Part shown: in pieces, positions 8,437 through 53,490 of the stretch | Numbering within the stretch: the stretch's first letter is position 1 | Layout: every line of letters starts with the position of its first letter | Virus record (IMG/VR): IMGVR_UViG_3300045988_170943 | Span: 192,001-256,000 of that record | DNA: 64,000 bases | Source of the DNA: a virus | Strand: one strand, 5' to 3' | The notes under the pieces: generated by a model | Seen by the model: only the letters and a program-made list of their open reading frames with translations | What the model was told of the DNA's origin: nothing | Databases searched by the model: none | Translations under genes and position numbers: made by a program

Positions 8437-8465
8437 CCCCGAGCGCCCTTGACGCCCTCATAGGA

Positions 8466-8511
8466 CGAAGGCGGGTAAGAGAGTACGATTTGCCTCTCTT
8501 ACCCGCCTTCG
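8466..8511. terminator. Bidirectional hairpin terminator with a perfect 18-bp stem, cgaaggcgggtaagagag / ctctcttacccgccttcg, and a 10-nt loop.
   Basis: Read directly. Lies between convergent ORFs 7828-8436 (+) and 8598-8885 (-). Confidence 0.7.
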
Positions 8512-8597
8512 CTGTATCCTATATCTGCCTATGCGACTTGCCGCTCAGGCAGTGGCGCTAGGAGGGGTTACGTTTAGTCCCTGCCTGCCCCATATGC

Positions 8598-8885
8598 TCA
8601 CCATGGGTAGATGATCTCTTCCAGATCACAACGGGCAAGGCGAGTTTCTGACAGCATAGCGTCCTCATGGTCCAGGAACATGCTGGGCTCATCGAGGCAG
8701 GGGTAGTCAACCACCCTGATGGTGAACGACCGGGTAGACATGGCGTCGTCCTCTGCCCAGCCGTTCTCATTCTTCACCTCCATGTGCAGGGTGAGAGTGA
8801 TGCTGGCTGTCCCACGCATGGGATTATTGCGGGTGGCCACCCAGTGGAGGCGGCGAGGCTGACGGGATGGTGGAGGGGTTGTCAT
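8598..8885 (-). CDS. Small hypothetical protein of 95 aa.
   Basis: ORF ends just before the shared hairpin terminator. No motifs. Confidence 0.3.
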   Translation of the reverse strand: MTTPPPSRQPRRLHWVATRNNPMRGTASITLTLHMEVKNENGWAEDDAMSTRSFTIRVVDYPCLDEPSMFLDHEDAMLSETRLARCDLEEIIYPW

Positions 8886-9040
8886 AAGGCTGGCTTTCTG
8901 GCTCGGCTTGTGGCTGCTACAGACCCAACTGTCGTCCGCAGTCGCTAGAATCTATTGCGCTTCCTTGACCTGTAGTAATACAACTGATGTGCTACAATAC
9001 ACTATATAGATGCTACTAGTCAACCCAGGGAGGTGAGTCT

Positions 9041-10570: not shown

Positions 10571-10745
10571 TCAGCGAGTGTATACCCTGCCATCCATCAA
10601 TGCCAACCAGAAAGATGTTTACTACGTCACACTCACACTTGTGTCCACGCATATACAAGCGATTCCCCGGAGCGGGGCTACCCCAGGGAGTCACGTTCAG
10701 GCAACTTGTGAGGTGACACATCTCACGATCTGCCTTGCAAGTTGC
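10440..10745 (+). ncRNA. Candidate omega RNA (reRNA) region, spanning the 3' end of tnpB and the right end of the element.
   Basis: Inferred only from the known architecture of TnpB elements. No structure was verified. Confidence 0.2.
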
Positions 10746-10751
10746 GTGTGA

Positions 10752-11492
10752 TCAGTCGTGCACGATCTCGTTGACCATGTGGCTGACTGCCGCGTGGGTG
10801 TCAGCGTTGGGGTCTACGAGGATTCGCCAGTTCGCGCACTCCAGCAGGGGGACGTCGCTGCGGGTGTCACCAAACGCTACAACTGAGGGGTAGCGTTCCA
10901 GGTGCAGTCCCTTCAGGTAGGTCCGCTTGGACTCGCTGGTGAACATGCCGCGGTACTCGCCGGTGAAGCGACCCTGGGAGTCTGTGAGATACCTGGTGGC
11001 GGCGGTGTCGAACCCGAACCGTGTACCGAGTTTGTCTACGAGGAACGAGGGGGAACCGCTGACGAGGACTACTCTGGTGCCTCGGCTTCGCATGAGGCGG
11101 AGCCTGTATAGTGTGGTGTAGAAGTTGGCGGGGTTGCTGGCAATGAACTTGACATACTTGTCGGCCATGATGTCGGCCTCCGTCTTGCCGATGATGGCTT
11201 CACGGTATGCCTCAGCGAGGGCCTGGATCAGGGTCTCGTTCTTCTGGTCTCGCCGCCACCGGTCTGGCAGGTCACCCAGGTCAAGGATGTTGGAGTCGTG
11301 AAGCAGGCATGCGTGCCTCAGAACGAGAGATCCTTTGATGATGGTCCCATCCACATCGGATAGGGCGATTCCGTTTGCGCGGCTGGTGCGCGGGCGTGTC
11401 GGGCGGCCAACGTTCCTCATGTTTTGGTTTTTCTTCGCGTATTTACTTGCATATTTTGGCATGGTGCGAACCATATCACGGGCTCTTAGCAC
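10752..11492 (-). CDS. HAD-superfamily hydrolase (HAD-IB / phosphoserine-phosphatase-like). The true start is probably the internal ATG near 11420.
   Basis: DVDGTI (DxDGT motif I) and GDTRSDVPLL (motif IV GDxxxD). Confidence 0.6.
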   Translation of the reverse strand: MLRARDMVRTMPKYASKYAKKNQNMRNVGRPTRPRTSRANGIALSDVDGTIIKGSLVLRHACLLHDSNILDLGDLPDRWRRDQKNETLIQALAEAYREAIIGKTEADIMADKYVKFIASNPANFYTTLYRLRLMRSRGTRVVLVSGSPSFLVDKLGTRFGFDTAATRYLTDSQGRFTGEYRGMFTSESKRTYLKGLHLERYPSVVAFGDTRSDVPLLECANWRILVDPNADTHAAVSHMVNEIVHD

Positions 11493-22343: not shown

Positions 22344-23546
22344 GTGAGTAACAGCAAACGACTCATCATGTGTCACGGACTGCCCGGCTCGGGTAAGTCC
22401 ACGTGGGCTGCCCGCTATGTCGAGGCTAATCCTGGAACGGTTATCGTCAACAAGGACGTGCTGCGCACTGAGGTCGCGGGCGAGAACTACCACCGGGCGG
22501 GGCACGATCCGAGAGTGGAGAAGCGAGTCGCCCAGTTGCAGCGTGAGCGCCTGGAGGCCGCTTTCACTGACCCCAATGTGCTTGTTGTGGTCAGTGATGA
22601 CACGAACCTGGACGCAAAGGATGTGAAGCGCGTGTGGGACCTGGCTGAGGCCCATGGGGTGCAGGTTGAGCACAAGTACCTGGATGTGCCTGTCAGCGTG
22701 TGCAAGGAACGCAACCGCGCTCGTGCGACTGCCGGTGGGCGCCTTGTCCCAGAGAACATGATTGACGCCATGGCCGTGAAGGGCTACGACGAGCCGATCC
22801 ACCTGTTCGGTGACGACGGAGTAGTTGAGCCGGGCCACATCAAGCACTTCATTCGTGATGAGCGCAATGGTCAGGTGATGGCGGTGTCGCACATTCATCA
22901 GGGGAGTGTGGACCTGGATGCGTTCAATCAGGCTGCCGCACTTGCCTACCCGATCCGTGGGCGCTCGGTTGTGATACTGGATGCTGACGGCACCCTATTC
23001 AACAACAAGGACGACTCTAGGCGGTTTCTGAATCGTAGTCGCCCTGACTTCCCTGGGTTCTACCGGTCCATTGCGAACGCCTCAGTGAACCAGAAGGTGT
23101 TGCGGCTGGTTCAGGAGATGCGAGACTGTGACGGCCTGAACATTATCCTGGTGACGGGCCGGTCGAACGACTACGCCAGGGCCTTGATTGACGCCGTGTC
23201 CAGGTCTGGCGCCCCAGTGTCCAGGGTGATCATGAAGCGTGCTGGTGATGCCAGGCCATCTAGTGTCCACAAGGAGGAGGCCCTGAGGTCACTGCGGGGT
23301 GAGGGCCTGGTTGTGGTGCATGCTGTGGATGACCGGGGTAAGGACATCGCCATGTTTGAGCGTAACGGGGTCATGGTGTCCAGGGTTGCTGAGCCGGACA
23401 CTGACGGTGTGGAGCCGGATGTGGACACCATGTATGGTTCTGGAAGGTGTATCCGTTGCGGTCGGCCTTTGTCAGGTGGTGGCAGTATTGGGAGGACCTG
23501 CCGCACAAAGATGGATTCATGGTGGCAGATTGTGACTGGACAGTAA
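22344..23546 (+). CDS. pnkP: Polynucleotide 5'-kinase / 3'-phosphatase (T4 Pnk-like) with a C-terminal Cys-rich tail.
   Basis: P-loop GLPGSGKST in the N-terminal half. HAD phosphatase motif ILDADGTL in the C-terminal half. Tail CIRCGRP...CRTK. GTG start with RBS GAAGGA. Confidence 0.7.
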   Translation: MSNSKRLIMCHGLPGSGKSTWAARYVEANPGTVIVNKDVLRTEVAGENYHRAGHDPRVEKRVAQLQRERLEAAFTDPNVLVVVSDDTNLDAKDVKRVWDLAEAHGVQVEHKYLDVPVSVCKERNRARATAGGRLVPENMIDAMAVKGYDEPIHLFGDDGVVEPGHIKHFIRDERNGQVMAVSHIHQGSVDLDAFNQAAALAYPIRGRSVVILDADGTLFNNKDDSRRFLNRSRPDFPGFYRSIANASVNQKVLRLVQEMRDCDGLNIILVTGRSNDYARALIDAVSRSGAPVSRVIMKRAGDARPSSVHKEEALRSLRGEGLVVVHAVDDRGKDIAMFERNGVMVSRVAEPDTDGVEPDVDTMYGSGRCIRCGRPLSGGGSIGRTCRTKMDSWWQIVTGQ

Positions 23547-23630: not shown

Positions 23631-24785
23631 CTACTCAATGACGACTGTGCTCGTGTCCTTAGGGCGGTCGTGGACGTCCCATCCTTCAAACCCAATAGTG
23701 ACATGGTAGTCATATTTCGGCAGGCCAAGTGACTCACGGATCTGGTCGGCCTGTGGGCACGTGGCGACAACATACCATGTCTCCTTCGCGCGACTCCCCC
23801 TCCCTCTGCTGATGGTTCCGATGCCGCCGAGAGTGAAGTCCAAGTCGTGACCCCTGAACGCCTCACGCACCTTGTCAAGTCCGACCTGCTGCATCTCTGA
23901 TGGCCTGACAACAGTGATGTGGCGGCCGCTGTCTCGGTCACGACGGACCCGGTTGTCCGCTAGACGTTTGGCGTTCTCTTCACCGACGTACCGAGCCCAT
24001 GCTTTCAGCCTGGATTCCATGGCCTCATCCGGGAGGGCGACTGATGCGTACTGACCTCCGACATTCATCTCCACTGGTAGGGCGCCTGTCTGTGTCGCGT
24101 TGGGGCCACTGACCTGCTGTTGCGGGAAGTCATCGTAGTCATAGGATCTGCTCTCGTGGTCGAGGACGATTGCCTGTCTGGCAAAACCGTTCAGGGATTC
24201 GTCATCATCTAGCAGCGTGCGCATGATGTCCAGGTTGCTTCCAGCGTCCATGATGTTTGCGTCGCCACCGTAGAATTTCTTGACCTCATCGGCCGTGTGC
24301 ACCCCGTATGCATCCAGGTAGACGCCCGGCTGCCTGGTGGTGACCATGACGTGCGCGATCTGGCTGGTGTCACCAGGGTTGGCCTCCAGGTGTGCATCCA
24401 GCCTGTCACTGGTATCTAGGTCATAGGTGACGAACACGGGACGCCTGGTTGGGTCCTTCCTGATGATGGCTGCCGCGAGGTCCCCACATAGCCCGTTGGC
24501 GAGCGCGTACCGGTTCCTGGGGTCGGCAAGATCTCCGTCACGCATCCTCATTGTGCCCCACAGGCTGGTCGGGACATCCACGAACCTACCTGCCCCACTG
24601 ATACCGCCCGTGGTCGGGGTATGATCAATGGTCTGTGTGAGGTCAGTGCGGAGACCTCTCCTTTTGAGGTCGTTGTACTGGCGAGCCTCTTCCATGGAGG
24701 TGAACTGGGGACCGAACGGACATCGCCCCAGTTTCGCCTCGCACGGGCCGGAGACCCCTTGGGTATTGGTGTGGATGAGTGTCAT
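23631..24785 (-). CDS. Hypothetical protein carrying the shared N-terminal Cys module (GPCEAKLGRCPF...EEA).
   Basis: The N-terminal 45 aa align with the N-termini of ORFs 35579 and 44192. The remainder is unknown. Confidence 0.45.
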   Translation of the reverse strand: MTLIHTNTQGVSGPCEAKLGRCPFGPQFTSMEEARQYNDLKRRGLRTDLTQTIDHTPTTGGISGAGRFVDVPTSLWGTMRMRDGDLADPRNRYALANGLCGDLAAAIIRKDPTRRPVFVTYDLDTSDRLDAHLEANPGDTSQIAHVMVTTRQPGVYLDAYGVHTADEVKKFYGGDANIMDAGSNLDIMRTLLDDDESLNGFARQAIVLDHESRSYDYDDFPQQQVSGPNATQTGALPVEMNVGGQYASVALPDEAMESRLKAWARYVGEENAKRLADNRVRRDRDSGRHITVVRPSEMQQVGLDKVREAFRGHDLDFTLGGIGTISRGRGSRAKETWYVVATCPQADQIRESLGLPKYDYHVTIGFEGWDVHDRPKDTSTVVIE

Positions 24786-25670: not shown

Positions 25671-25708
25671 CCGGGGTTCAGAATGGTTCCTGAGCCCCGG
25701 TTTTCTTG
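25671..25708 (+). terminator. Rho-independent terminator. Stem ccggggttcag / ctgagccccgg with one mismatch, followed by TTTT.
   Basis: Read directly after the stop at 25650. Confidence 0.5.
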
Positions 25709-25746
25709 CTCCTGGAGGGTTAGGGGTTTCAATGTTCGTGTTGTGC

Positions 25747-25789
25747 TGATATAATAGATGCAAGAGTAAAGGTCAAAGTGACCTTTACT
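25747..25789 (+). promoter_or_regulatory. Extended -10 promoter (TGATATAAT) followed by a perfect palindrome, AGTAAAGGTCA-aag-TGACCTTTACT. The palindrome is a candidate NrtR operator.
   Basis: Palindrome at 25765-25789, about 30 nt before the pncB start. NrtR is encoded as the last gene of the operon. Confidence 0.5.
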
Positions 25790-25821
25790 GGTTCGGGTGA
25801 GATAACGACAGGAAGACAACT

Positions 25822-27126
25822 ATGGAGACTACCGCTTTCCTCACAGACAAGTACGAAGTGACGATGCTCCAAGCCATGCTTCGTGCTGGCCGGGCGGACC
25901 ACAGAGCAGTCTTTGACCTGTTCGCCCGCCGCCTGCCTAAGGGTCGCCGGTACGGGGTCGTTGGTGGAGTCGGCCGCGTCGTCAAGGCGGTCAAGAACTT
26001 CAGGTTCACAAATGAGCAGATCGCCTACCTTGAGGCCGACCCGATCATTGATGAGGCGACAGTCAGATACCTCCGCGACTACAAGTTCCGCGGCATCATC
26101 GTCGGCCAGCCGGAAGGATCCCTGTACTTCCCGAACACCCCCATTCTCACGGTTATTGGCACGTTCGTTGACTGTGTGCTGCTGGAGACGCTGCTGCTGT
26201 CCATCATGAACCACGACAGTGCGGTCATGTCTGCTGCCAGCCGAATGGTGACCGCCGCCGAGGGTATACCCATGATCGAGATGGGATCCAGGCGCACCAG
26301 TGAGACCAGCGCCGTCGCCGCAACCAGGGCCGCCTATATCGCTGGGTTCAATGCGACCAGCAACCTTCAGGCCGGGCACCTGTACCAGATCCCCACGACC
26401 GGGACCAGCGCCCACGCCTACACGCTCGCTTATGGGCCGGACGGTGAGGAGCAGTCCTTCTACGACCAGATGGTAGCGCTCGGCACAGGCACCACGATCC
26501 TGGTTGACACCTACAACATTCCTGAGGGTATCCGGCGAGCCGTCCACGCCGCCAACGCCCTGGGTGCCAGCGGGCCAGGAGGGATCCGCATCGACTCTGG
26601 TGACCTGCATGAGGAGGCCGTCAATGCCAGGACGCTACTAGACTCCTTGGGGGCTATAGACACGAAGATCGTGCTCTCATCTGACATCGACGAGTACACG
26701 ATCTCAGAGATGAAGGAGCGTGGAACACCGGTTGACGCTGTGGGGGCGGGCACTAGGGTTGTCACTGGCTCTGGTGCCCCGACGGCGGAGATGGTGTACA
26801 AGTTGGTGCAGATCAACGATACGCCGGTGTCGAAGCGGGCTGAGGGGAAGGTCTCTACTGGTGGTATCAAGGTCACCTACCGTGAGTTCCATGAGGATGG
26901 GACCATGGCTGGTGAGTTCTTCAAGGTCGGGGCCACTAGCGCCCCGTTCACCAGTGGACAGCACCCCACCCAGGTTCTTCTTGTGGATGGGCAGAGCGGC
27001 TACTTTCACCAGGAGGACATTGAGGTGTCTCGGGCTCGTCACAAGGAGCAGGTTGCGTACCTGCCTGAGAGTGCGCGCCTGATCCTCGCTGGTGATGCCG
27101 CGTTCACCGCTCAGCAGGCAGACTGA
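25822..27126 (+). CDS. pncB: Nicotinate phosphoribosyltransferase.
   Basis: N-terminus LTDKYEVTMLQA and overall NAPRTase-like sequence (SAHAYTLAYG, GIRIDSGD). Confidence 0.8.
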   Translation: METTAFLTDKYEVTMLQAMLRAGRADHRAVFDLFARRLPKGRRYGVVGGVGRVVKAVKNFRFTNEQIAYLEADPIIDEATVRYLRDYKFRGIIVGQPEGSLYFPNTPILTVIGTFVDCVLLETLLLSIMNHDSAVMSAASRMVTAAEGIPMIEMGSRRTSETSAVAATRAAYIAGFNATSNLQAGHLYQIPTTGTSAHAYTLAYGPDGEEQSFYDQMVALGTGTTILVDTYNIPEGIRRAVHAANALGASGPGGIRIDSGDLHEEAVNARTLLDSLGAIDTKIVLSSDIDEYTISEMKERGTPVDAVGAGTRVVTGSGAPTAEMVYKLVQINDTPVSKRAEGKVSTGGIKVTYREFHEDGTMAGEFFKVGATSAPFTSGQHPTQVLLVDGQSGYFHQEDIEVSRARHKEQVAYLPESARLILAGDAAFTAQQAD

Positions 27127-27167
27127 CACACCCCAACCCATAGGATCTGAGAAAAAGAGGTGCAGTT

Positions 27168-28679
27168 ATGAAGGTAGCAGTAGGACAGATCAACCCGCTC
27201 ACTGGGGACTGGGATGGCAACGCGGACAGGATTATTGCTGCTGCCAGCAGTATAGATCAGGCGTGGTTCCGTGGCAGCGAGCCGGTTCTTGTGCTCCCAA
27301 GGTTCGCTCTATCTGGCACAGGGTTGGGTGACATGACTGGTAGTCCTGACATGGTGAAGGGTATGCGGGCCGCTGAGACGAAGATTGCCGTCAGCGTGCC
27401 CGCGTGGTTGACAGTTGTCTATGGGACTGTGAGCCCGCTGGGTGTTGAAGAGGTCATTGTGGCCCGTGCGGGGGTGGTGAAGCGTCTGGCGGGTGATGGA
27501 ACATCGAATCTGGTGTCACTGGGTGAGGACTGGGTTCAGATCGTTCTGGAGGGGAAGGGGGTCAACTACAAGGATGTGACAGAGGAGAACCTTATTGTTC
27601 TGGCTGCTGATCCTTACACGCCTGATGCCATTGGGGAGCGTGTGAAACGGGTGGATGATCTCATGTGGGCGACCTGGTGCCGTAATGCTGTCTATGTGAA
27701 TCTTGTGGGTGGTCAGGATGAACTTGTCTATGATGGTATGTCCCTGATTATGGACCGTAATGGGGCGGTCGTGGATCATCTGCCGCGTTTTGAGGAGGAG
27801 GTCAGGTTTGTGGACACTGACGCCTTGGTTGCGGGTAGACGCTGCGATCTGGCCCGTGATGAGGTTGCTGACACGTACCGGGCTATCGTCCTGGGTGTTC
27901 GGGACTATGCTCGACGTAACCAGATGGGGAAGGTGGTGCTTGGTGCTTCTGGTGGTATCGACAGCGCCTTGGTTCTGACGATTGCTGCTGACGCCATTGG
28001 GGCGGAGAATGTGATCGGTATCTCTATGCCTAGCGAGTATTCTTCCCAGCACTCCCAGGATGATGCGGAGGAGTTGATGCGCCGTTTGGAGGGTGAGTTC
28101 CGTAAGGTGCCTATCGCCCCGATGGTTGACGTCTTCCAGGATGCGCTCGCACTGGACGGGGTTGCTGAGGAGAACCTTCAGGCTCGTGTGCGTGGCGTCA
28201 TTGTGATGGGGGTTGCAAACACGGAGAACGCCCTGCTGCTAGAGCCTGGTAACGCCTCAGAAGCGGCCGTGGGGTATGCGACGATCTATGGTGACACGGT
28301 TGGGGGTTACGCTCCAATCAGTGACGTGTACAAGACGGATGTGTACCGGCTGGCGGCCTGGAGGAATACGCTCCCTGACTCGCCAATCCCTGAGTCAACG
28401 ATGATGAAGGCCCCAAGTGCGGAACTGCGCCCTGGGCAGGTGGACTCTGACTCTCTGCCGGACTATGAGGTACTGGATGCTGTACTGCGGGACATGTTTG
28501 AGGGCGGGCTGGAGTTTGACCGTGACGCCTTGTACGCCCACCATGATAAGGATGTGGTTGACTTGGTGCTGTGGAAGGTGCGTACCGCTGAGTGGAAACG
28601 TCGCCAGACAGCGTTCGGCCCTAGAGTGTCATCGTACTCGTTCGCCCACGACCGGCGAGTACCAGTGAGTCGAGCGTGA
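27168..28679 (+). CDS. nadE: NAD+ synthetase with an N-terminal nitrilase/CN-hydrolase-like domain.
   Basis: PP-loop VVLGASGGIDSALV, which is the SGGxDS motif. Confidence 0.8.
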   Translation: MKVAVGQINPLTGDWDGNADRIIAAASSIDQAWFRGSEPVLVLPRFALSGTGLGDMTGSPDMVKGMRAAETKIAVSVPAWLTVVYGTVSPLGVEEVIVARAGVVKRLAGDGTSNLVSLGEDWVQIVLEGKGVNYKDVTEENLIVLAADPYTPDAIGERVKRVDDLMWATWCRNAVYVNLVGGQDELVYDGMSLIMDRNGAVVDHLPRFEEEVRFVDTDALVAGRRCDLARDEVADTYRAIVLGVRDYARRNQMGKVVLGASGGIDSALVLTIAADAIGAENVIGISMPSEYSSQHSQDDAEELMRRLEGEFRKVPIAPMVDVFQDALALDGVAEENLQARVRGVIVMGVANTENALLLEPGNASEAAVGYATIYGDTVGGYAPISDVYKTDVYRLAAWRNTLPDSPIPESTMMKAPSAELRPGQVDSDSLPDYEVLDAVLRDMFEGGLEFDRDALYAHHDKDVVDLVLWKVRTAEWKRRQTAFGPRVSSYSFAHDRRVPVSRA

Positions 28680-28789
28680 GTGCCATGGAACCTATAAAAC
28701 CAGCAAAAGCGACCACATGGCAGAAACCAGTGAAAGGCCCTGGGGAGACAACACCTGGGCAGAGAATCTACAACAAGGGAGACGAGCAC

Positions 28790-29416
28790 ATGAGTGTACA
28801 GAACAGCAGGAAGACCGGGCGAGCACTGATCGTCGTTGACGTCCAGAACGACTTCGTGGAGGGCGGTGCGCTCGCCGTCACCGGAGGCAATGACCTGGCG
28901 GCACGTATCGCCGTCCTCTTGAAGGACCCAGATTTCATGGGACGCTACGATCAGATCATCCTCACCCGCGACTGGCACATCGACCCCGGCAGCCACTTCT
29001 CTGACTCCCCAGACTACGTTAAATCCTGGCCTGTTCACTGCGTCGCCGGGACACCTGGGGCAGCCTTCGTTGACCCTCTTGAGCAGGCCCGCCACGGCAT
29101 CAAGGTCACCATTGTAGACAAGGGTATGTTTGACGACGCCTACTCCGGGTTTCAGGGCATCACCTCTTTCAGTACGCCACTGGCAGGGTTCCTTCGTAGC
29201 AGGGGCGTCAAGGCTGTGGATGTTGTGGGTATCGCCACTGACTACTGCGTGAAAGCAACCGCCCTGGACGCAGCGCGCGAGGGGTTCGACACCACTGTCA
29301 TCGCCAGCCTGTGTGTTGGCATCAACCCGGACAGCATCACACAGGCCCTAAAGGTGGACCTGCCAGCCGCCGGAGTGAACGTCACGGACACCATTCCAAC
29401 TGAGGGCGCGGTATGA
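28790..29416 (+). CDS. pncA: Nicotinamidase/pyrazinamidase of the isochorismatase family.
   Basis: LIVVDVQNDF and ATDYCV are typical of PncA. RBS AAGGGA precedes the ATG at 28790. Confidence 0.75.
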   Translation: MSVQNSRKTGRALIVVDVQNDFVEGGALAVTGGNDLAARIAVLLKDPDFMGRYDQIILTRDWHIDPGSHFSDSPDYVKSWPVHCVAGTPGAAFVDPLEQARHGIKVTIVDKGMFDDAYSGFQGITSFSTPLAGFLRSRGVKAVDVVGIATDYCVKATALDAAREGFDTTVIASLCVGINPDSITQALKVDLPAAGVNVTDTIPTEGAV

Positions 29417-30240
29417 CAGGATCCCAGCCAGTGGTGTACAATCAGAACAGGCCAACAGCAGAAGGATCACACATGAGTAACCTTGACTACGAGCAGGCAG
29501 ATACGGAAGAGGAGTTCCTGAAGGAATACGACCTCAAGAACTTCCCCAGCGTGGGTTTAACGGTGGACCTTCTCATCTTCACTATCCGTGACGGACGACT
29601 GTCCCTGCTGCTCATCCGCCGTGGGGCCCACCCAGAGAAGGGTAAGTGGGCTCTACCAGGCGGGTTCGTGAATACCACAGAATCGTTGGATGAGGCGGCA
29701 GCCCGCGAACTCACGGAAGAGACAGGCCTGGAGATGGCTGGGTACCTGGAGCAGTTACGCACCTATGGGTACCCTGGGCGTGACAAGAGGGGTTTCATCG
29801 CCTCCACCGCATATGTGGCCCTCGTCCCAAATGCCAGCACTCCGCACGCTGGCGACGACGCGGCAGATGCCCACTTCTTCGCTGTCGAGGATGTTCTGGG
29901 TGACGAGGATGGTGTGGAGTTCGATCTCGCGTTTGATCACCGCGACATCATAGTGGATGGCCTGGAGCGGGTGCGCGCAAAGATCGAGTACGCGCCCGTT
30001 GCACACAAGTTCCTCTCTGGGGAGACGTTCACTATCCCAGAGATCCGTAAGGTGTACGAGATCATCTGGGGGCGGGAACTGAACGCCTCGAACTTCCGGC
30101 GTAAGATGCTGTCTACACCAGGTCTGCTGGAGTCGGTGGGTGAGAAGAACCGGGATAACCCATGGCGTCCCTCTCACCTGTATCGGGCCGGTGAGGCGAC
30201 CGAGATCTTCCCGCCTCTTCAACGTAACCGCATCAAGTGA
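29413..30240 (+). CDS. nrtR: NrtR, the Nudix-related transcriptional regulator of NAD metabolism. A Nudix domain is followed by a C-terminal winged HTH.
   Basis: Nudix box GGFVNTTESLDEAAARELTEETGL. C-terminus FTIPEIRKVYEIIWGRELNASNFRRKMLSTPGLLESVGEK...PSHLYR matches the NrtR wHTH pattern. ATGA overlap with the pncA stop. Confidence 0.7.
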   Translation: MTGSQPVVYNQNRPTAEGSHMSNLDYEQADTEEEFLKEYDLKNFPSVGLTVDLLIFTIRDGRLSLLLIRRGAHPEKGKWALPGGFVNTTESLDEAAARELTEETGLEMAGYLEQLRTYGYPGRDKRGFIASTAYVALVPNASTPHAGDDAADAHFFAVEDVLGDEDGVEFDLAFDHRDIIVDGLERVRAKIEYAPVAHKFLSGETFTIPEIRKVYEIIWGRELNASNFRRKMLSTPGLLESVGEKNRDNPWRPSHLYRAGEATEIFPPLQRNRIK

Positions 30241-30270
30241 TCTGAGAGGCCATAGCGAGTACAGAATCGG

Positions 30271-30320
30271 GTGGGCCGCATTGGTAGCATCATCTACTAC
30301 CAATGCGGCCCACTTTCCGT
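30271..30320. terminator. Strong hairpin terminator. 17-bp stem gtgggccgcattggtag / ctaccaatgcggcccac.
   Basis: Read directly after the nrtR stop. Confidence 0.65.
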
Positions 30321-33187: not shown

Positions 33188-35326
33188 TTGGTGGTTGTTG
33201 TGGCTGGTTCCCGGTCTTATGATTCGAGTAGTATTCAGGCTTTGTCGCCTCATCAGCACTTGTTGAAGCGTATCTCGTTGACGTTTGGGTCTGAGTCCGG
33301 GGATTCCGGGCACCCGTTTTCCAGCCAGAAGTCAACAGCGATCCGTGAGGTTGTGGATAATGCTGTGGATGAGGTGTCTGCGGGGTTCGGTGACCGGGTG
33401 CGGGTGACGTTCTTTAAGGACGGTAGCGTGCAGGTTGAGGACTCTGGGCGTGGTATCCCTGTGGATTCTTCTCTGGACGCGAATGGTCGCATGGTGTCTG
33501 GGGTGTTCAAGGCCTTGGGGATCATCCAGTCTGGCGGTAAGTTCGGTGGCTCTGGGTTCTCGGCCGGTTTGAATGGGGTTGGGGCTGCGTCAACGAACCA
33601 CTTGTCGCGGCGTATGGATGTGTCGGTGTTCCGTGACGGTAAGTGCCACAGGGTGTCGTTTCGGGATGGGGTGCCGGGTTTCTTTGACGTTGAGGGCGAC
33701 CCGGACGCTGGTTTCACGGAGTTGGGTGACTATGCTCACCTGGAGGTCAGTGAGGACAGGCGGCCCAGGGGCGAGCGTGACCTGTTTCCGACGGGTACGA
33801 CGATCCGCCTGTGGCTGCGTGACGAGGTGTTTCAGTCTCCGTACCCGGTTGATGTGGATGACCTGGTGGAGCGGCTTCGTAGTACCGCCTACCTGATCCC
33901 TGGTATCTGGGTGGAGGTCGTCAATGAGCACCGGCAGGTGAAGGATCCTGAGACCGGGGCGGTGGGGCCTCAGCGTGAAGTGTTTCATTTTGAGGATGGC
34001 CTGGTGGATCTGGCGTCCGCTAACCTGTCGTCAGCCCCGATCTGTGACCCGGTGCACGTGTCCTGTGAGGGCCGGTACATGGAGCGGAACGTACCCGTGG
34101 TGAAGGATGACGGGACTGTGGCTCATGAGGACGTGGAGCGTACCGTACCGGTCGAGGCGGTCATGGTGTGGGGGGACGGTTTCGAGGGGCATGTGGCATC
34201 GTTCGTGAACACGATCCACACGAAACTGGGGGGCGTGCACGAGGATGCTTTCGCTAAGGCGGTAGTGGCGGCCTTCGGTGAGAAACTGGCGTCAGTGCGG
34301 GGACTGATGACCCGAAAGGACTCCTTGCCGATTTGGGAGGACTACCTGGAGGGCCTGTCGCTGGTCCTGTCGGTGAGGGTTTCTGAGCCGTCTTTCACGT
34401 CGCAGACGAAGGAGCAACTGGGGGGCACTGCTGTGCGTAAGGCCATCCAGGAGGCTGCGACCGAGGCACTGGCGGCATGGGTGGGGCAGCGCGCTAACAG
34501 TGAGGCCGTGCAGATCATTGGCCGTAAGGTCGTGGAGGCCGCTAGGGCCAGGGTTCGGGCGAAGGAGCGTCGGGATGCTGCCCGCACGAAGTCGCAGATC
34601 AGTGGCCTGTCCCTGCCGTCGAAACTGGTGGACTGTGAACTGGCCGGTACCGATGAGGCATCACTGTACATCTGTGAGGGTAACTCGGCCCTGTCCTCCC
34701 TGAAGGCCGCCAGGGATGGTCGTGTGGACGCTATCTTGCCGATCCGGGGGAAGATCATTGAGGCGTCCTCGAACAGCATGTCGAAGGTGCTGGCGAACAG
34801 TGAGGTGCAAGACATCATCAAGACTCTGGGCGCGGGGTACGGGGATGACTTCGACATTGACCGGATGAGGTACGCGCGTGTCCTCATCGCGGTGGACGCT
34901 GACCCTGACGGTAACAGCATCGCCTGCCTGATCTACTCTCTGTTCTGGCATCTTTTCCGTCCTGTTGTGGAGGAGGGGCGCCTGTTCAAGATTGAGACCC
35001 CACTGTTCTCTATCGCCACCCGTGAGGGGCGCAACTCCCGTAAGGTGTACGCTCGTGACGATGCGGAGCGGGATGAGCGGATGCGTGAACTCGATGAGGC
35101 GGGTGTGAAGTATGATGTGTCACGCCTCAAGGGGCTCGGTGAGGTTGAGGCCGACATCCTTGAAGAGACTGCTATCGACCCCGCCACGAGGGTGCTCACA
35201 CAGATAACCCTCCCGGACATTGGTGCGGCCGAGTCTGCTCTGAGTCTCCTGTTCGGTAAGAGCCAGACGGATGCTCGTAAGGAGTGGATGACAGGTGAGC
35301 GGGTTGACGAGGAGGACCTGATCTAA
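33188..35326 (+). CDS. Type IIA topoisomerase ATPase/TOPRIM subunit (GyrB/ParE/T4 gp39-like).
   Basis: YDSSSIQAL N-terminus. Bergerat box EVVDNAVDE. GRGIP. GGKFGG. TOPRIM YICEGNSA and AVDADPDG. Tail PIRGKII...LFKIETPLFS. Confidence 0.8.
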   Translation: MVVVVAGSRSYDSSSIQALSPHQHLLKRISLTFGSESGDSGHPFSSQKSTAIREVVDNAVDEVSAGFGDRVRVTFFKDGSVQVEDSGRGIPVDSSLDANGRMVSGVFKALGIIQSGGKFGGSGFSAGLNGVGAASTNHLSRRMDVSVFRDGKCHRVSFRDGVPGFFDVEGDPDAGFTELGDYAHLEVSEDRRPRGERDLFPTGTTIRLWLRDEVFQSPYPVDVDDLVERLRSTAYLIPGIWVEVVNEHRQVKDPETGAVGPQREVFHFEDGLVDLASANLSSAPICDPVHVSCEGRYMERNVPVVKDDGTVAHEDVERTVPVEAVMVWGDGFEGHVASFVNTIHTKLGGVHEDAFAKAVVAAFGEKLASVRGLMTRKDSLPIWEDYLEGLSLVLSVRVSEPSFTSQTKEQLGGTAVRKAIQEAATEALAAWVGQRANSEAVQIIGRKVVEAARARVRAKERRDAARTKSQISGLSLPSKLVDCELAGTDEASLYICEGNSALSSLKAARDGRVDAILPIRGKIIEASSNSMSKVLANSEVQDIIKTLGAGYGDDFDIDRMRYARVLIAVDADPDGNSIACLIYSLFWHLFRPVVEEGRLFKIETPLFSIATREGRNSRKVYARDDAERDERMRELDEAGVKYDVSRLKGLGEVEADILEETAIDPATRVLTQITLPDIGAAESALSLLFGKSQTDARKEWMTGERVDEEDLI

Positions 35327-35346
35327 ACCGCCCACCCCCCCTGGGC

Positions 35347-35393
35347 GACTCCCACCGGTCGAAACAATCGGTGGGAGTTTTGTTGTCTTTTTC
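35347..35393 (+). terminator. Rho-independent terminator. Stem gactcccaccg / cggtgggagt, followed by tttgttgtcttttt.
   Basis: Read directly after the stop at 35326. Confidence 0.6.
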
Positions 35394-35578
35394 ACTCTTC
35401 CGCGGGTTCTGATGTGGCCATTTCTTCATGCGGACCAGAGTGTAATAGGCGCCGCTCTGAGGTCACACAGGGTGATGTTGTTTAGATAACCAAGAGAATC
35501 AATATTTAACTCGGTTAGAACCTGATTAACCACGTTTCCCCTGCAATCTTTCTGTCTTCATTCTTTAGGGCGGTCCCC

Positions 35579-36901
35579 ATGTACTGGCACATCAACACCA
35601 ACAAGGGCAACATTGTGGAGCCATGCGGCCGAACAACTGGCAGGTGCCATTTCATTGAGCACTACCCATCCGAGGAGGAAGCCAGAATCGCGTCTGCTGC
35701 TATGAGACGCAAGAATGACTGGAAGACCCTCATGGCCCAGTACAAGCGCGCCGAGAGGGCGTCAGAGAGACGCATGGTGGTGCCAACGAACCGGTACAAC
35801 CCGTTCCTAGATGACGGAATGGTCGGTGCGTGGCGGAAACTGGATGCGCTGGAAGCAGAAGGATTCTCACCCCAGTGGCAGTCATACAGGATCCCGATCA
35901 TCTACCCCGGCTGGGAGAAGGACGACAAGATCCTCTACCTTGAGCGCACCCCGTACACAGACACGGCGGACGGGACCGTGGAGAACAAGTACAGGATCGT
36001 CGCCTATGACAAACTACACGAGGAGGAGATGACGGTAGACGTGGATCCTTTCGACTTCGAGGAGACACTGAAACTTCAGATGAACTCCTCTGGCCTGTCA
36101 CGCCGCCATGACGCACCCCCTGAGGAGCAGGAGGCGGCACGTAGAGCGGCTGCGAACGCCATCATAGACGCCCGGTTGCAGGCGGAAGACCAGGTGTGCA
36201 CGGACTTCTCCGGCTACTGCGCACCCAGTGATAGTGTGGAGCGTGAACTCTACGAGAACAGGCTCCCAAGCAACCACTACTATATTGGCGACAACCCGAG
36301 CCACTACCCGTACAACCATGGGGACGTGGCCATGTCGTTCTTCCGCCACCCTGACCCGTTCAGGGTGGGTGACTTCAACCTGGCGAACACGCTAGCACGC
36401 CCTAGCCTGCTCCGACGGTTCATGCTCACTGACGACCAGGCGTCCAACGTCGGGTTTGGGACTCGCCCACGCATAGGGTTCTCCTGGACGAACGACGAGG
36501 CGGGCACGTCGAAGGCCAGTTGGACCTTGAAGTACGCGCCACCGTTCCGTCAGGGCAGCCAGACACCGTGGTCAATGATTACCAGGGAGGCTGACGGTAC
36601 CGTGAAGGAGACACCGATCACTGACCCTGAGGACGCCGCAATGCGTCTGGCCGTGTTCAATCGGGACCACATGCCTCATGGGGCCGGTGTCAACACTGAG
36701 GATCATGTGAGACAGTGGGTGAAGTCAACTATCCGTGAGATTGACGAGATCGCTGAGGAGGCGAGGGTTCTGCGCGAGAGGAACACCGCCAGGCACAGCG
36801 CCAGCCTGGAGGAGGAGTACGGCCTTGGTAGCAGTGGTGGCGAAGCGGGCAGTAAGCGCGGGAGAGGGTTCCTGGGCAGGGTGCGATCCCTCATGGGGTG
36901 A
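35579..36901 (+). CDS. Hypothetical protein with the shared N-terminal Cys module (EPCGRTTGRCHF...EEEA).
   Basis: N-terminal alignment with ORFs 23631(-) and 44192. The rest is unknown. Confidence 0.45.
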   Translation: MYWHINTNKGNIVEPCGRTTGRCHFIEHYPSEEEARIASAAMRRKNDWKTLMAQYKRAERASERRMVVPTNRYNPFLDDGMVGAWRKLDALEAEGFSPQWQSYRIPIIYPGWEKDDKILYLERTPYTDTADGTVENKYRIVAYDKLHEEEMTVDVDPFDFEETLKLQMNSSGLSRRHDAPPEEQEAARRAAANAIIDARLQAEDQVCTDFSGYCAPSDSVERELYENRLPSNHYYIGDNPSHYPYNHGDVAMSFFRHPDPFRVGDFNLANTLARPSLLRRFMLTDDQASNVGFGTRPRIGFSWTNDEAGTSKASWTLKYAPPFRQGSQTPWSMITREADGTVKETPITDPEDAAMRLAVFNRDHMPHGAGVNTEDHVRQWVKSTIREIDEIAEEARVLRERNTARHSASLEEEYGLGSSGGEAGSKRGRGFLGRVRSLMG

Positions 36902-37248
36902 CCCTGCTGCGAGTCATTGCTGGTCGCTGATGATCCTTCGTACTCCTGCCGTTTCACTTCAGGTGGCGGCATTGTTGCGCACATTTTTGGTGGGTGTGTC
37001 GCTCATTTTTGGGGGTGGCGGCAGTGGGGTTGGTACCCTCATGGGTGTGTGTAGAGCGTGGCTGCGTGATTGAGTGCGTTAGATAGGGTTGTGTTGGTGG
37101 GCCTGGGTGTGGTACCCTTTCCCCCAGCAACCACAAGGTCACAGCATGGTCACATAGTGTGATATACTATGCGCGACCACACGGTAGATTAACACGGTTA
37201 AAGTATTAGAAAACGTTAGGCCAAAAGGGAAAGAGGGGCAACACGCAA

Positions 37249-39792
37249 GTGAAACTCAACGTTGATGGTGACATGATCCCCTCCCTTGAGAGTACCTACT
37301 GGTCCACCCCGGAGTGCCCCGTCCCCGAGAAACACTCGTCACGAGAAGCCCGAGCAGTGTTCGCCAGCCTGATGCCTGAAGGGGCTACCGGATACTTCCC
37401 CACCAAGGACAAGAAACCAGTTGAGGATCACTGGGACCCGGCCCCCTTCCTTCAGGAACCCAAGGGCGGTGACAAAGAGAACCCCGGCAGGTGGTACCTC
37501 TTTGAGGACGGCAAGTGGGAGGACGGCACCAACTACACGTACGCGGTCTACATCACACCTGGCAGCAACATCTGCGTCTTCGATCTCGACCCCCCCAGAG
37601 ACCTGACAGGAAACCCGGACATGAAGTACCGGGTAGTAGAAAAAATGCGCGACAGGTTCTCCAAGATGCTGAAGACCGACCTGTCCGAGACAACGACCGT
37701 GCGCACCCCAAGCGGAGGGATGCACCTCACCGTCGAACTCCCCAAAAGGTTCACCCCATCCCCCAACACCAGCACCCACAGGGCCCCAGGAAAAGGGTTC
37801 CCCATCAAAACACTCGCCAAGTACAACCGGCACTTCGAGAAGATCACAGGCATCAACCCCCACCTGAACGGCGACATCCGCTCCGCCCACTCCAAAGGGT
37901 ACGTGAACGGCCCAACCCGACTCTGGGACTGGGAGAACCCCGCACGTAACTACACGGCCGGGAAGAACGCCTACTTCCTAATGAACCGCAAGAAGCCACT
38001 CAAGTTGTCGGTGAAGGCGTGCCAGATCCTCAGGGACGGAGCCTACCTGGAGTACAAGCAAGCCAGCAAAAGAGACCGCAAAAAAAGAGCAGAGTCAGAA
38101 AAGCGACGTAACGCCAAGCACGAGCAAGGCGACCGTGACCGGCGGCCACTAGGCTACTGGCTCAACAAACACCTAGACAACACCAAGCACCTTGAAGCCG
38201 ACTACAAGAACCTCTTCGGTGGCGACAGTTACGCCAGCACCCTCCTGAATGAAGCCCCAGGCGTTGAGGTCCTAGACATCCTCGCCAAGCAGATCACCCA
38301 GTTCTATGAGGGCGAGGACACCCTAGAGACGTTCCACGGGTGGCGATCCATCATCACCCAGTCCATGGCCTGCCACTACAGCAACAAGCAGATCATGGGA
38401 GCATGCATCGCCCTGAGAGCAGATAGGGACACGCACCGTGGAAGCCGCATCAGCACCAAGGAACTGCGACAGGACATCAGGAAGGTGCTGTGGAAGGCCA
38501 AAAAGCGTGAGGGCGGCATATTCCACGGGCCAGCCTGCCCAGAGAGCATCCTCCGCAACACCAAGATGGCCGGTAAACCCAAGCCCCAGGACCGCATTGA
38601 CGCCACCGGTGACAAAGGGCAGGCGGAACTTGACGCATTCCTGAAGTACCGGAGAGACAAGATCCTTGAAGGCACATGGGGTCGTCGTGGCGCCGGTTTC
38701 ACCTCCTTCTACAACCCCAGGGTCATTGACATCGTGAAGGCATCCGATGCGCTCATGTCCCCACGTGGCGGCATGTTCACCCAGAAGTACCGTGACGCGA
38801 TGGGCATCCTTGACGCTATCGCCCAGCCCTTGTGCAACGTCGGCGACCACATGTTCCCCATGGCATACAACTTCACTGCCGGGATGCTGAAACTTGACGG
38901 CCCTAACGCCCACGACCGGGTAAAGGAAGCCCTCAGGTACCTCAGGGACCAGAAGGTGCTGGAGGTCACCAACAAGCAATACGAGGGGCTGGCCGCTACA
39001 TACACGGTCGCGGACGAGTTCATCAACGACACTCTCACCAGGGCACTTAAGTCATCATGGCGCAACCAGTTACCTGACGCCAACAATGAGCGGGAGCCAC
39101 TATTCTTCGACCGCCGGTCCGGTGAGTTCCGCCAGGTGTTCACAGGCGCTATCGTCACCAGCAAGTTCAACTACAACAAAGAGGTCCAGGAGATCATCAA
39201 CTGCGTGAACCTGGACTACACCGACCCCAGCCTGGTTGGGCCTGCTACCGCGATCCGGTACCTGAAAGATGAGCGCATGACCCGTGGCGTCATGCTCGCC
39301 GAGGACAACACCACCTTGTACAACGAGGCTACTGGCGAAGTCGTGGAGCAAGTCCCGTGCGTGACAACCCATGGGGCCGCCGCCCAGGTCATGGGTGTGG
39401 CATGGGCAAGGCCCGTTGACTTTGTGAGCGACCTGGAACAGATCTGGGCGGACTGCCCAGCACCTGAGGAGATCGCATACGACGAGTTCAACGACCCGGA
39501 CCATGCGCTGGAGGTTGACGAGCGGTGGCAGCCCGACGCGATGGAACCCGACCCTGTGGCAGACTCAGCGCCCGCACGATTCATAGGGCCACCGGGCACT
39601 CCTTACACCTCTCCCAGTAATGATGGCTGGACCAAGGGTGGGGTTGACAGCGTGTGCTACAATGGTTACGGAAGCGTCAATAAAGATAACAATAAAGATA
39701 AACAGGCGCTTCACTACCACCACATGACTGAGGAGATAGAATGCCTAAGAAGCGGAAGTCGCGTAAGCGCAATGGCAGGGGCGCCACTTTAG
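37249..39792 (+). CDS. Primase-polymerase (archaeo-eukaryotic primase, Prim-Pol) domain protein with a large C-terminal extension.
   Basis: NICVFDLDPP (DxD) and TPSGGMHLTV (sGG-H) are Prim-Pol motifs. GTG start with RBS AAGAGGGG. Confidence 0.6.
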   Translation: MKLNVDGDMIPSLESTYWSTPECPVPEKHSSREARAVFASLMPEGATGYFPTKDKKPVEDHWDPAPFLQEPKGGDKENPGRWYLFEDGKWEDGTNYTYAVYITPGSNICVFDLDPPRDLTGNPDMKYRVVEKMRDRFSKMLKTDLSETTTVRTPSGGMHLTVELPKRFTPSPNTSTHRAPGKGFPIKTLAKYNRHFEKITGINPHLNGDIRSAHSKGYVNGPTRLWDWENPARNYTAGKNAYFLMNRKKPLKLSVKACQILRDGAYLEYKQASKRDRKKRAESEKRRNAKHEQGDRDRRPLGYWLNKHLDNTKHLEADYKNLFGGDSYASTLLNEAPGVEVLDILAKQITQFYEGEDTLETFHGWRSIITQSMACHYSNKQIMGACIALRADRDTHRGSRISTKELRQDIRKVLWKAKKREGGIFHGPACPESILRNTKMAGKPKPQDRIDATGDKGQAELDAFLKYRRDKILEGTWGRRGAGFTSFYNPRVIDIVKASDALMSPRGGMFTQKYRDAMGILDAIAQPLCNVGDHMFPMAYNFTAGMLKLDGPNAHDRVKEALRYLRDQKVLEVTNKQYEGLAATYTVADEFINDTLTRALKSSWRNQLPDANNEREPLFFDRRSGEFRQVFTGAIVTSKFNYNKEVQEIINCVNLDYTDPSLVGPATAIRYLKDERMTRGVMLAEDNTTLYNEATGEVVEQVPCVTTHGAAAQVMGVAWARPVDFVSDLEQIWADCPAPEEIAYDEFNDPDHALEVDERWQPDAMEPDPVADSAPARFIGPPGTPYTSPSNDGWTKGGVDSVCYNGYGSVNKDNNKDKQALHYHHMTEEIECLRSGSRVSAMAGAPL

Positions 39793-39998: not shown

Positions 39999-40239
39999 AC
40001 CCGCCCCCTGAACCCTGAGATCAGATACGCCCTCCCTTGGGTGAGGCGGCACACACCCTAGTGCGAGTGCGAAACCACTTGGACGCGACATGCCCCATAC
40101 AGGGAATGTGATCATCACAACAAGGGGTGACCCCTCATAGTTTGTGCCCACTAGATTAATCCGTGCTAACATACGTGACCGTATAGGCCCCGCCCGTTTG
40201 CGTGCGCGGGGCGGGAATCTAGAAATGAGGGGCGGCAAG

Positions 40240-53395: not shown

Positions 53396-53490
53396 GGGGC
53401 AAGCACCGCACGCATTGCCACGTAAACACACCAGACGCACGTTTCCTCGATATTTTTTGCGATTCTACTTAACATTTTTATGGAGGGGTA

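Follow-up and report, generated by a model that had tools for sequence, protein, structure and literature searches.

A candidate NrtR-controlled NAD-salvage operon on a metagenomic element of about 420 kb

We focused on a four-gene operon, pncB-nadE-pncA-nrtR, that occupies positions 25822 to 30240 (+ strand) of a 64,000-nucleotide stretch of IMG/VR virus record IMGVR_UViG_3300045988_170943 (positions 192,001 to 256,000 of that record; the whole 64-kb stretch is referred to as the window here). The four co-directional genes form one unit with its own promoter and flanking hairpins, and they are predicted to encode a nicotinate phosphoribosyltransferase (PncB), a nicotinamide adenine dinucleotide (NAD) synthetase (NadE), a nicotinamidase (PncA), and a Nudix/winged-helix repressor (NrtR). 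Our overall reading is that this is a self-contained, NrtR-repressed NAD-salvage operon on an element of ∼420 kb and that the operon would help both the element and its host cell to withstand NAD depletion; taken as a whole, we give this statement an even chance of being right. Its parts differ in strength: the regulatory circuit alone appears likely from the sequence comparisons below, and a benefit in counter-defense, i.e., in countering depletion, is a tentative proposal that we place just short of an even chance.

Candidate operator upstream of pncB

An earlier note on this DNA had pointed out a perfect 11-3-11 palindrome between an extended −10 element and pncB and had suggested that it is the NrtR operator. 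The palindrome (AGTAAAGGTCAaagTGACCTTTACT, positions 25765 to 25789) is indeed found there. The window contains it a single time, against 0 copies expected from shuffled sequences, and no other perfect inverted repeat in the 64 kb combines arms of at least 11 nucleotides (nt) with a short spacer. Within it lies the 21-bp site TAAAGGTCAaagTGACCTTTA (positions 25767 to 25787, 35 nt before pncB), a palindrome with a GT-N7-AC core whose conserved sequence can be written as TAAAGGTCA-N3-TGACCTTTA. For the majority of NrtR motifs, a palindrome of 21 bp has been described in which GT-N7-AC is the conserved core (Rodionov et al. 2008, PMC2330246), and the center of the palindrome in the window, GTcaaagtgAC, fits this core exactly. 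The palindrome directly follows the extended −10, at about +3 to +27 from the predicted transcription start.

The operator motif was derived by footprinting the regions upstream of pncB in relatives. In the alignment, this intergenic DNA has diverged save for the promoter hexamers and the palindrome after the −10. Among relatives with 48 to 76% NrtR identity, the palindrome is located 26 to 66 nt upstream of pncB, and directly after the −10 wherever a promoter is recognizable (clades A to C and locus L116). In four or five diverged relatives it stays beside pncB, with both half-sites changing symmetrically (GGTCA/TGACC, CATCA/TGATG, and ACTCA/TGAGT). The respective sites are TAAAGGTCA-aag-TGACCTTTA in clade A, TAAAGGTCA-tag-TGACCTTAA in clade B, TAAACATCA-gag-TGATGTTAA in clade C, TAAAACTCA-atg-TGAGTATTA in L008, and TAATACTCA-caa-TGAGTTTTA in L116, while L041 carries two tandem GTCA-N3-TGAC sites. 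The sequence conserved across clades is TAAAnnTCA-N3-TGAnnTTTA. In clade A, nine variants share all 18 arm bases of the core despite a synonymous divergence (dS) of 0.1 to 0.28; the nine bases that separate the −10 from the palindrome are variable, and a joint switch from G/C to C/G is seen at positions 2 and 24 of the 25-mer. The window and loci L010, L113, L114, and L112 represent natural operator alleles, distinguished by the orientation of the spacer (AAG versus CTT) and by the symmetric swap at positions 2 and 24, a pattern that fits recombinational flipping of the palindrome with the binding site kept.

A search of the fetched loci (1.63 Mb in total) for TCA-N3-TGA flanked by five or more complementary pairs out of six yielded 36 sites of the palindrome class, versus about 2 expected by our own calculation, from loci of which many are redundant and which represent about eleven independent lineages. 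Most of these sites precede pncB, nrtR, or the gene that opens their cluster by 24 to 90 nt, and for a few the nearest NAD gene is 0.6 to 4 kb away. The class is also found upstream of nrtR itself in the unrelated loci L039, L061, and L025.

One observation speaks against an operator: in the mRNA, the palindrome would fold into a 5′-terminal hairpin (−14.3 kcal/mol, z −4.3). It could hence be an RNA stem-loop involved in stability or attenuation, or a site for another protein, with NrtR acting elsewhere or being mainly an ADP-ribose pyrophosphatase. The location just downstream of the predicted start and the stability of the fold agree with a stem-loop; the symmetric covariation would preserve an RNA stem too, and an intact, invariant Nudix box is consistent with an enzymatic role of NrtR. 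However, it is the sequence that is conserved across clades, beyond pairing alone, and for this reason we favor recognition by a protein, although an additional function of the site in the RNA is conceivable. The published NrtR core and 21-bp geometry are present as well, the same class of site precedes nrtR in the three unrelated loci, and the winged helix of NrtR is strongly constrained (ratio of nonsynonymous to synonymous substitution rates [dN/dS] up to 0.05). We thus regard the stem-loop as very improbable and the palindrome as a well-supported candidate for an NrtR-type operator in a repression architecture, as judged from its core, its kept position, and its covariation in diverged relatives.

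NrtR

NrtR shows the two domains of its family, a Nudix domain (PF00293, 67.8 bits) and a winged helix (NrtR_WHD PF21906, 60.4 bits, cutoff of 27), and it aligns over both of them with NrtR of S. oneidensis (3GZ5 residues 5 to 225; E value of 1.4e-35). Against the NCBIfam equivalog NF050029 (TransRepNtr) it scores 152 bits, below the cutoff of 400, so that it is a family member from outside the NF050029 orthologous group. The winged-helix motif NFRRK is invariant in the NrtR relatives, paralleling the invariant TCA/TGA core of the operator. In an alignment of 41 homologs the Nudix box (G-x5-E-x7-REUxEExGU) is likewise invariant, and it is intact in the NrtR of the window, which may hydrolyze ADP-ribose as well. 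In other family members, ADP-ribose frees NrtR from DNA (PMC2330246, PMC6800001), and by analogy with these we infer that ADP-ribose is also the effector of the NrtR studied here.

Salvage enzymes

PncB passes two NCBIfam equivalog cutoffs for nicotinate phosphoribosyltransferase (NF006698, 536.8 bits with a cutoff of 531; TIGR01513, 399.8 bits with a cutoff of 297.4), and it matches a phage nicotinamide phosphoribosyltransferase (NAMPT) family weakly (phrog_448, E value of 1.1e-10). PncA, which is fully intact, belongs to the Isochorismatase family and matches PncA of M. tuberculosis (3PL1) with an E value of 3e-52. Its Asp/Lys/Cys triad and its Asp/His/His/His metal site (four ligands) align with those of 3PL1, in the segments VVDVQNDF, DWHIDPGSHF...HCV, DKG, and GIATDYCV. 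Counted on the longest open reading frame (ORF), the catalytic core starts at residue 49, and the start of the gene is ambiguous (GTG at 28676, ATG at 28685, or, in an alternative gene call, ATG at 28787), with the true start possibly further downstream. Nicotinamidases convert nicotinamide to nicotinate and ammonia, and nicotinate phosphoribosyltransferases convert nicotinate and phosphoribosyl pyrophosphate to nicotinate mononucleotide (NaMN).

In NadE, the synthetase domain is intact (Pfam NAD_synthase PF02540, 201.6 bits) and the N-terminal CN-hydrolase (glutaminase) domain is degenerate. In clades A to C, PRF stands in place of the catalytic PE[LM]; in NadE of the window, Arg45 thus replaces the catalytic Glu, the ICED cysteine segment is deleted, and residues 1 to 165 are devoid of Cys. 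The ICED motif is retained in the more distant relative L041. Given that the catalytic residues of the glutaminase are lost, NadE is predicted to depend on free ammonia, and PncA would balance this demand by yielding one ammonia per nicotinamide. Residues 1 to 235 (window positions 27168 to 27870) are remarkable in their own right, in that the glutaminase is catalytically dead in clades A to C, yet purifying selection on it persists.

Purifying selection acts on all four genes. The dN/dS values, which we judged informative only at a dS of at least 0.05, range from 0.0 to 0.16 over the operon, with 0.08 to 0.15 for pncB, about 0.1 for nadE, 0.06 to 0.16 for pncA, and the lowest values, 0 to 0.05, for nrtR.

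Operon boundaries

Profile and structure-sequence matches, the promoter, and the flanking hairpins bear out the gene identities and the single-operon layout of the earlier note (Table 1). Its proposal that the four genes are translationally linked applies in part: nadE and pncA as well as pncA and nrtR overlap by 4 nt, and pncB and nadE are separated by 41 nt. Upstream, the intrinsic terminator of a DivIVA-like gene, which is kept in clade A relatives, would isolate the operon from upstream transcription. The pncB promoter, whose −35 fits at three of six positions, escaped a consensus promoter scan; we accepted it because its extended −10 is present and conserved. Relatives have TTGACT or TTGACA at the aligned −35 position. 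The hairpin downstream of nrtR is the probable terminator of the operon, in common with the convergent downstream gene, and it was missed by a consensus terminator scan because its T tract is short.

TABLE 1 Features of the NAD-salvage operon and its upstream neighbors (window coordinates)
Feature	Position	Strand	Basis or remark
Polynucleotide kinase-phosphatase, T4-type	22344..23546	+	Context, outside operon; clades A and B only
2H-SAK phosphoesterase	23631..24785	−	Context, outside operon; adjoins NAD operon in clades A, B, and C
Intrinsic terminator of upstream DivIVA-like gene	25671..25700	+	11-bp stem, then TTTTCTT; terminator scan; −22 kcal/mol, z −3.5
Weak −35, TTTCAA	25727..25732	+	17 nt upstream of −10; from sequence
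Extended −10, TGaTATAAT	25747..25755	+	From sequence; unchanged in nine clade A variants and clade B
Candidate NrtR operator, perfect 11-3-11 palindrome	25765..25789		Uniqueness, GT-N7-AC core, positional conservation, symmetric covariation, invariant NFRRK
Ribosome-binding site, AGGAAG	25810..25815	+	6 nt before pncB ATG; from sequence
pncB, nicotinate phosphoribosyltransferase, 434 aa	25822..27126	+	Profile matches
nadE, NAD synthetase, 503 aa	27168..28679	+	Profile matches
pncA, nicotinamidase	28676..29416	+	Profile matches and 3PL1 alignment
nrtR, Nudix and winged-helix repressor, 275 aa (possibly 255 aa from Met21)	29413..30240	+	Profile matches and 3GZ5 alignment
19-bp stem-loop 3′ of nrtR, then TTTCC (probable operon terminator)	30269..30315	+	−41 kcal/mol, z −7.5

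Related NAD modules and neighboring genes

NrtR homologs with 48 to 76% identity are found on other large contigs, where they adjoin pncB, pncA, and usually nadE. The NAD module is retained in related elements of 34 to 64% GC, suggesting long-term retention across different hosts. Half of the NrtR/Nudix homologs that we fetched from IMG/VR have NAD-synthesis genes within 7 kb. In several relatives (P0004 [L008, positions 10001 to 11422], P0064, P0067, and P0072) PncA and NrtR are fused into a single protein of 445 to 473 amino acids with an isochorismatase, a Nudix, and a winged-helix domain. As far as its domains tell, such a fusion would unite in one polypeptide the handling of both products of NAD-degrading enzymes (NADases).

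The NAD-reconstitution pathways (NARPs) known so far are NARP1 (Adps and Namat), NARP2 (Nampt and Nmnat), and NARP3 (PnuC and a NadR-like protein), and for NARP2 a counter-defense function has been established experimentally. In 15 of the 80 IMG/VR loci with an NrtR or Nudix homolog, on contigs of 10 to 512 kb, we found a NAMPT gene within 7 kb. It lies directly downstream of nrtR in 12 of these 15 loci, and seven also contain a nicotinamide mononucleotide adenylyltransferase-like gene, with Pfam hits below the cutoff. These nrtR-NAMPT loci look like a regulated module of the NARP2 type. Examples of nrtR followed by NAMPT are L061 (positions 6933 to 10247), L044 (6983 to 9096), L042, L043, L045, L055, L056, L059, L065, L103, and L108; in L061, the palindrome CCATGGTCAtcgTGACCATGG is located 48 nt before the nrtR match.

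Directly upstream of the NAD operon, the kinase-phosphatase and the 2H-SAK phosphoesterase, whose 275-amino-acid N-terminal part has no assigned family, probably constitute an RNA-repair (anti-ribonuclease) module. RNA-repair genes adjoin the NAD operon across clades of 34 to 58% GC, and in clades A to C the 2H-SAK gene, the DivIVA-like gene, and a deoxynucleoside monophosphate (dNMP) kinase gene accompany the NAD module. In L006, genes for HAD_SAK_2 and an RNA ligase lie in between or beside pncB, pncA, and nrtR.

Proposed mechanism and role

In the mechanism that we propose, an NrtR dimer would bind the palindrome, which overlaps the transcription start after the extended −10, and would thereby block the promoter. 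Upon NAD breakdown, ADP-ribose would bind to the Nudix domain and NrtR would leave the DNA. With the operon switched on, PncA would convert nicotinamide to nicotinate and PncB would convert this to NaMN, a NadD of the host would form nicotinate adenine dinucleotide (NaAD), and NadE would convert NaAD to NAD, with its dead glutaminase bypassed by free ammonia, which PncA would supply in equal amounts. Since nrtR comes last in the operon and encodes an intact Nudix box, the response can be expected to shut itself off, possibly with the help of ADP-ribose hydrolysis.

The reading as counter-defense relies on the products of defense NADases, which are nicotinamide and ADP-ribose, and on an analogy. 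In P. aeruginosa, the NAD-degrading toxin NatT derepresses an NrtR-controlled chromosomal pncB1/nadD2/nadE operon; the salvage pathway neutralizes the toxin, loss of these genes raises NatT toxicity, and deletion of nrtR suppresses the NatT effect (PMC11535050). A link to conflict is further suggested by the PncA-NrtR fusions, the adjoining RNA-repair genes, and the NARP2-like nrtR-NAMPT loci. A counter-defense function is plausible for the operon on the element, with a role against NAD depletion being the single reading that we consider best, and its selective role would most likely cover both NADase-type immunity (SIR2, TIR, and short Argonaute systems) and NADase toxins.

Several points weigh against this reading. 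The same genes and the same regulatory logic serve ordinary chromosomal NAD homeostasis, for which no role in conflict is required. Compared with NARP1, the route is slow and costly in ATP, and a fast NADase may outpace a response that depends on transcription. Some NrtR relatives answer to other ligands; NdnR of C. glutamicum, for example, reportedly uses NAD as a corepressor. Scanning ten ORFs with PADLOC revealed no NADase or other defense system. No NadD or other cytidylyltransferase-like protein was found among the ∼47 window ORFs scanned, with the remaining ∼350 kb of the element outside the scan, nor was NadD found in the gene tables of relatives (10-kb flanks), so that the pathway would rely on NadD of the host or on one encoded elsewhere on the element.

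The operon may accordingly be an ordinary auxiliary metabolic module that raises or steadies the NAD supply of the host for a replicating 420-kb element, or that lets a host poor in NAD synthesis scavenge niacin, with NrtR acting homeostatically and immunity playing no part. We consider this quite possible, at roughly one chance in three. It has cellular counterparts in pncB-nadD-nrtR-nadE of cyanobacteria, nrtR-pncA-pncB-nadD-nadE of Clostridium, and the salvage operon of P. aeruginosa, as well as in chromosomal loci of Firmicutes metagenome-assembled genomes (MAGs) with nrtR near pncB and nadE. The element further carries other nucleotide and replication genes, and the authors who described NAD gene clusters of jumbo phages interpreted them as a supply for phage propagation that complements host pathways (PMC11662467). 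Against mere homeostasis, the pathway starts at nicotinamide, an NADase product, without a de novo step or a transporter; PncA is fused to NrtR in some relatives; RNA-repair genes remain adjacent; and nrtR-NAMPT operons exist on other IMG/VR contigs of 10 to 512 kb. These points lean towards conflict, and the two roles can coexist.

It is improbable, in our view, that the operon primarily feeds NAD consumers of the element itself (NAD-dependent DNA ligase, ADP-ribosyltransferases, or a Tpt1-type RNA 2′-phosphotransferase) and recycles the nicotinamide they release. NAD-jumbo phages do encode at least 15 kinds of NAD consumers (PMC11662467). The kinase-phosphatase and 2H phosphoesterase genes directly upstream, and the HAD_SAK_2 and RNA ligase genes among or beside pncB, pncA, and nrtR in L006, would be compatible with such consumption. 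However, no LigA, Tpt1, macro, ADP-ribosyltransferase, or SIR2 domain was detected in the scanned window ORFs, and the kinase-phosphatase has a HAD 3′-phosphatase domain of the T4 type. Healing of RNA ends by T4 Pnkp-type enzymes leaves no 2′-phosphate and hence creates no need for NAD. We therefore ranked a Tpt1-linked role in RNA repair low, given the T4 HAD-type kinase-phosphatase and that no Tpt1 was seen.

A more far-reaching version of the counter-defense reading, which we think unlikely, is that the circuit senses the activity of immune effectors as such. In that case, a catalytically competent NrtR would detect ADP-ribose, or immune signals derived from it, produced by SIR2, TIR, or Argonaute NADases; it would trigger nicotinamide salvage, destroy the inducer, and reset. 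The same solution would then recur, as nrtR with pncA, pncB, and nadE, as nrtR with NAMPT, and as PncA-NrtR fusions, across largely undescribed elements of up to ∼0.7 Mb in hosts of 34 to 64% GC.

Comparison with known systems

The closest functional parallel is salvage pathway I of P. aeruginosa (pncB1, nadD2, and nadE), which has the same enzymes except for NadD and a repressor of the same family. It belongs to the chromosomal core genome and has its own NadD, whereas the operon on the element lacks nadD and combines a glutaminase-dead NadE with an NrtR whose Nudix box is intact. The NrtR proteins of S. oneidensis (3GZ5/3GZ6), Synechocystis (Slr1690), and M. smegmatis likewise combine Nudix and winged-helix domains, a 21-bp GT-N7-AC palindrome, and linkage to NAD genes. 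The operator arm of the element, TAAAGGTCA, differs from the mycobacterial GTTTTCGA-N7-TCGAAAAC, and the catalytic Nudix motif, intact in the NrtR of the element, is degenerate in NrtR of Shewanella, Mycobacterium, and S. suis.

Among mobile elements, NAD-jumbo phages (Microbiome 2024, PMC11662467) are similar in being metagenomic, larger than 200 kb, and equipped with clustered pncB, nadE, and pncA, for which counter-defense was suggested as one role. The contigs of the element (392 to 424 kb) are likewise above 200 kb, and their listing as viral in IMG/VR and the rIIA-like gene would fit a phage. Their clusters, however, are of the type pncB-nadD-nadE, their predicted hosts are mostly Bacteroidota, and neither NrtR nor another regulator is mentioned (PMC11662467); on the element, genes of the conjugation type are present, structural phage genes were not seen in the window and ∼20 kb of flanks, and the window ORFs scanned lack NadD.

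NARP1 to NARP3 are also mobile-element genes that rebuild NAD from NADase products or precursors, and NARP2 likewise starts from nicotinamide. The operon, consisting of PncB, NadE, PncA, and NrtR only, contains none of the enzyme pairs that define them. Its route is the deamidated one via nicotinate and NaAD, in four steps of which one would be supplied by the host, and it comes with a dedicated repressor. By analogy with other NrtR systems, ADP-ribose would be a signal here and not a substrate. The statement of the earlier note that the route is distinct from the published phage pathways thus holds with respect to all three NARPs, but its claim to novelty went too far: Preiss-Handler clusters of jumbo phages (pncB-nadD-nadE, and pncA) had been reported in 2024 (PMC11662467), and a toxin-induced, NrtR-controlled salvage pathway that neutralizes this very toxin was shown in P. 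aeruginosa (PMC11535050). NrtR-type ADP-ribose sensors have also been predicted in conflict systems (Iyer et al. 2022). In the literature that we searched, we found no salvage operon on a mobile element with a dedicated NrtR and a conserved operator, and no glutaminase-dead NadE, PncA-NrtR fusion, or nrtR-NAMPT operon on large viral contigs.

In the descriptions of the known NAD-rebuilding counter-defenses, NARP1 to NARP3, the enzyme pairs come with no sensor of their own. Should the operon be derepressed by ADP-ribose, it would represent a mobile counter-defense that is active only when an NAD-destroying effector of the host fires, which would make it cheap and self-limiting. Given the linkage of NrtR/Nudix and NAD genes in IMG/VR, such a regulated design could be common. 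It also offers a simple experimental handle in the form of a 25-bp operator, a single repressor, and a single small-molecule ligand. If, instead, the operon serves plain homeostasis, giant elements would still import complete host-style regulatory circuits beyond enzymes.

Carrier element

PncB with 94 to 97% identity is found in more than 90 protein clusters (P0121 to P0212), all from metagenome assemblies and none from NCBI or UniRef. The longest contigs of these clusters pile up at 392 to 424 kb, without a single one longer than 1 Mb. The breakpoints of two assemblies (418,686 and 420,306 bp) do not coincide, suggesting that the element is probably a circular extrachromosomal molecule of ∼420 kb. 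It is widespread but has never been cultured, being known from metagenomes only. IMG/VR classes near-identical contigs of up to 394,300 bp as viral, and several of the IMG/VR contig identifiers resemble those of Human Microbiome Project samples.

No close relative was present in GTDB species representatives, PLSDB, or INPHARED. The operon gave no megablast match in PLSDB or INPHARED; in tblastn searches of plasmids, PncB reached at most 51.7% identity, with actinobacterial or unrelated replicons throughout, and the coupling protein about 24% at best (PLSDB), while a neighboring 847-amino-acid protein had no match among phages. Scanning the GTDB species representatives for NrtR yielded only relatives of 32 to 50% identity, mostly in Firmicutes MAGs and without chromosomal synteny; the chromosomal loci in Firmicutes MAGs have nrtR near pncB and nadE. 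The window is thus not core chromosome, and the mobile-element context assumed in the earlier note is supported by the contig sizes of 392 to 424 kb, the different breakpoints, the viral listing in IMG/VR, the replication, conjugation-like, and rIIA-like genes of the element, and the lack of close relatives in the three databases.

The GC content is uniform over the window (58% for the element), scans of the window for tRNAs and Rfam families gave no hits, and many of its ORFs match nothing. Recognizable products are DnaG, a divergent GyrB, a dNMP kinase, an rIIA-like protein, TnpB, a coupling-protein-like ATPase (PF10412, 30.8 bits; PF12696, 29.2 bits), TcpC (44.4 bits), a NikA-like protein, and a TadE-like protein. 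An intein-containing DNA polymerase III alpha (DnaE) is encoded just to the left of the window, and a lysozyme and a σ factor just to the right. Neither VirB4 nor a relaxase was recognized in the window ORFs scanned, and neither capsid, portal, nor terminase in the window and ∼20 kb of flanks. The coupling-protein, TcpC, NikA-like, and TadE genes point to conjugation, and plasmid, phage, and hybrid are all possible. In PDB and NCBIfam, actinobacterial proteins match best (PncA of M. tuberculosis, NadE of Streptomyces, and a Wag31-like DivIVA), which hints at a host from the Actinomycetota.

By description, the element could represent a high-GC version of giant elements like the Inocles of oral Streptococcus (PMC12340149). 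These are plasmid-like extrachromosomal human-metagenome elements of several hundred kilobases as well, and they likewise encode a VirD4-type coupling protein, a DNA polymerase III alpha of their own, and a signal peptidase. They differ in having 24 to 32% GC, a size of 245 to 368 kb, and Streptococcus as a host, as opposed to 58% GC and ∼420 kb for the element, and NAD genes are never mentioned for them (PMC12340149).

The conjugation-type genes form a very divergent conjugation/pilus cluster at window positions 50942 to 59823, comprising the coupling-protein-like ATPase, TcpC, a small TrbC/VirB2-like ORF (weak match), GmrSD_C/HNH, and the NikA-like and TadE-like genes. An 865-amino-acid protein (positions 40144 to 42741) matches phage rIIA families (phrog_612, E value of 3.7e-39), its gene being of a phage type on an element whose other genes of this kind are conjugation-type. 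The GyrB-like protein, in the region from 33188 to 39792, scores well below all NCBIfam cutoffs for gyrase and topoisomerase IV, and no GyrA was recognized; it is followed by proteins of 440 and 847 amino acids without a family match, with a weak Prim-Pol match in a relative. A tnpB gene with a Cas12f1-like TNB domain (positions 9041 to 10570) is apparently alone. A 687-amino-acid protein (positions 14930 to 16993) fuses a YqaJ-like recombination exonuclease to a DEDDh (RNase T) exonuclease, whose part matches the PADLOC candidate defense family PDC-S48 (E value of 2.4e-19). Lastly, the GC skew is mostly positive from ∼14 to 36 kb and negative from ∼42 kb onward, despite genes being mostly on the + strand, and the cumulative skew peaks near 41 to 43 kb, where an origin or terminus of replication may be located.

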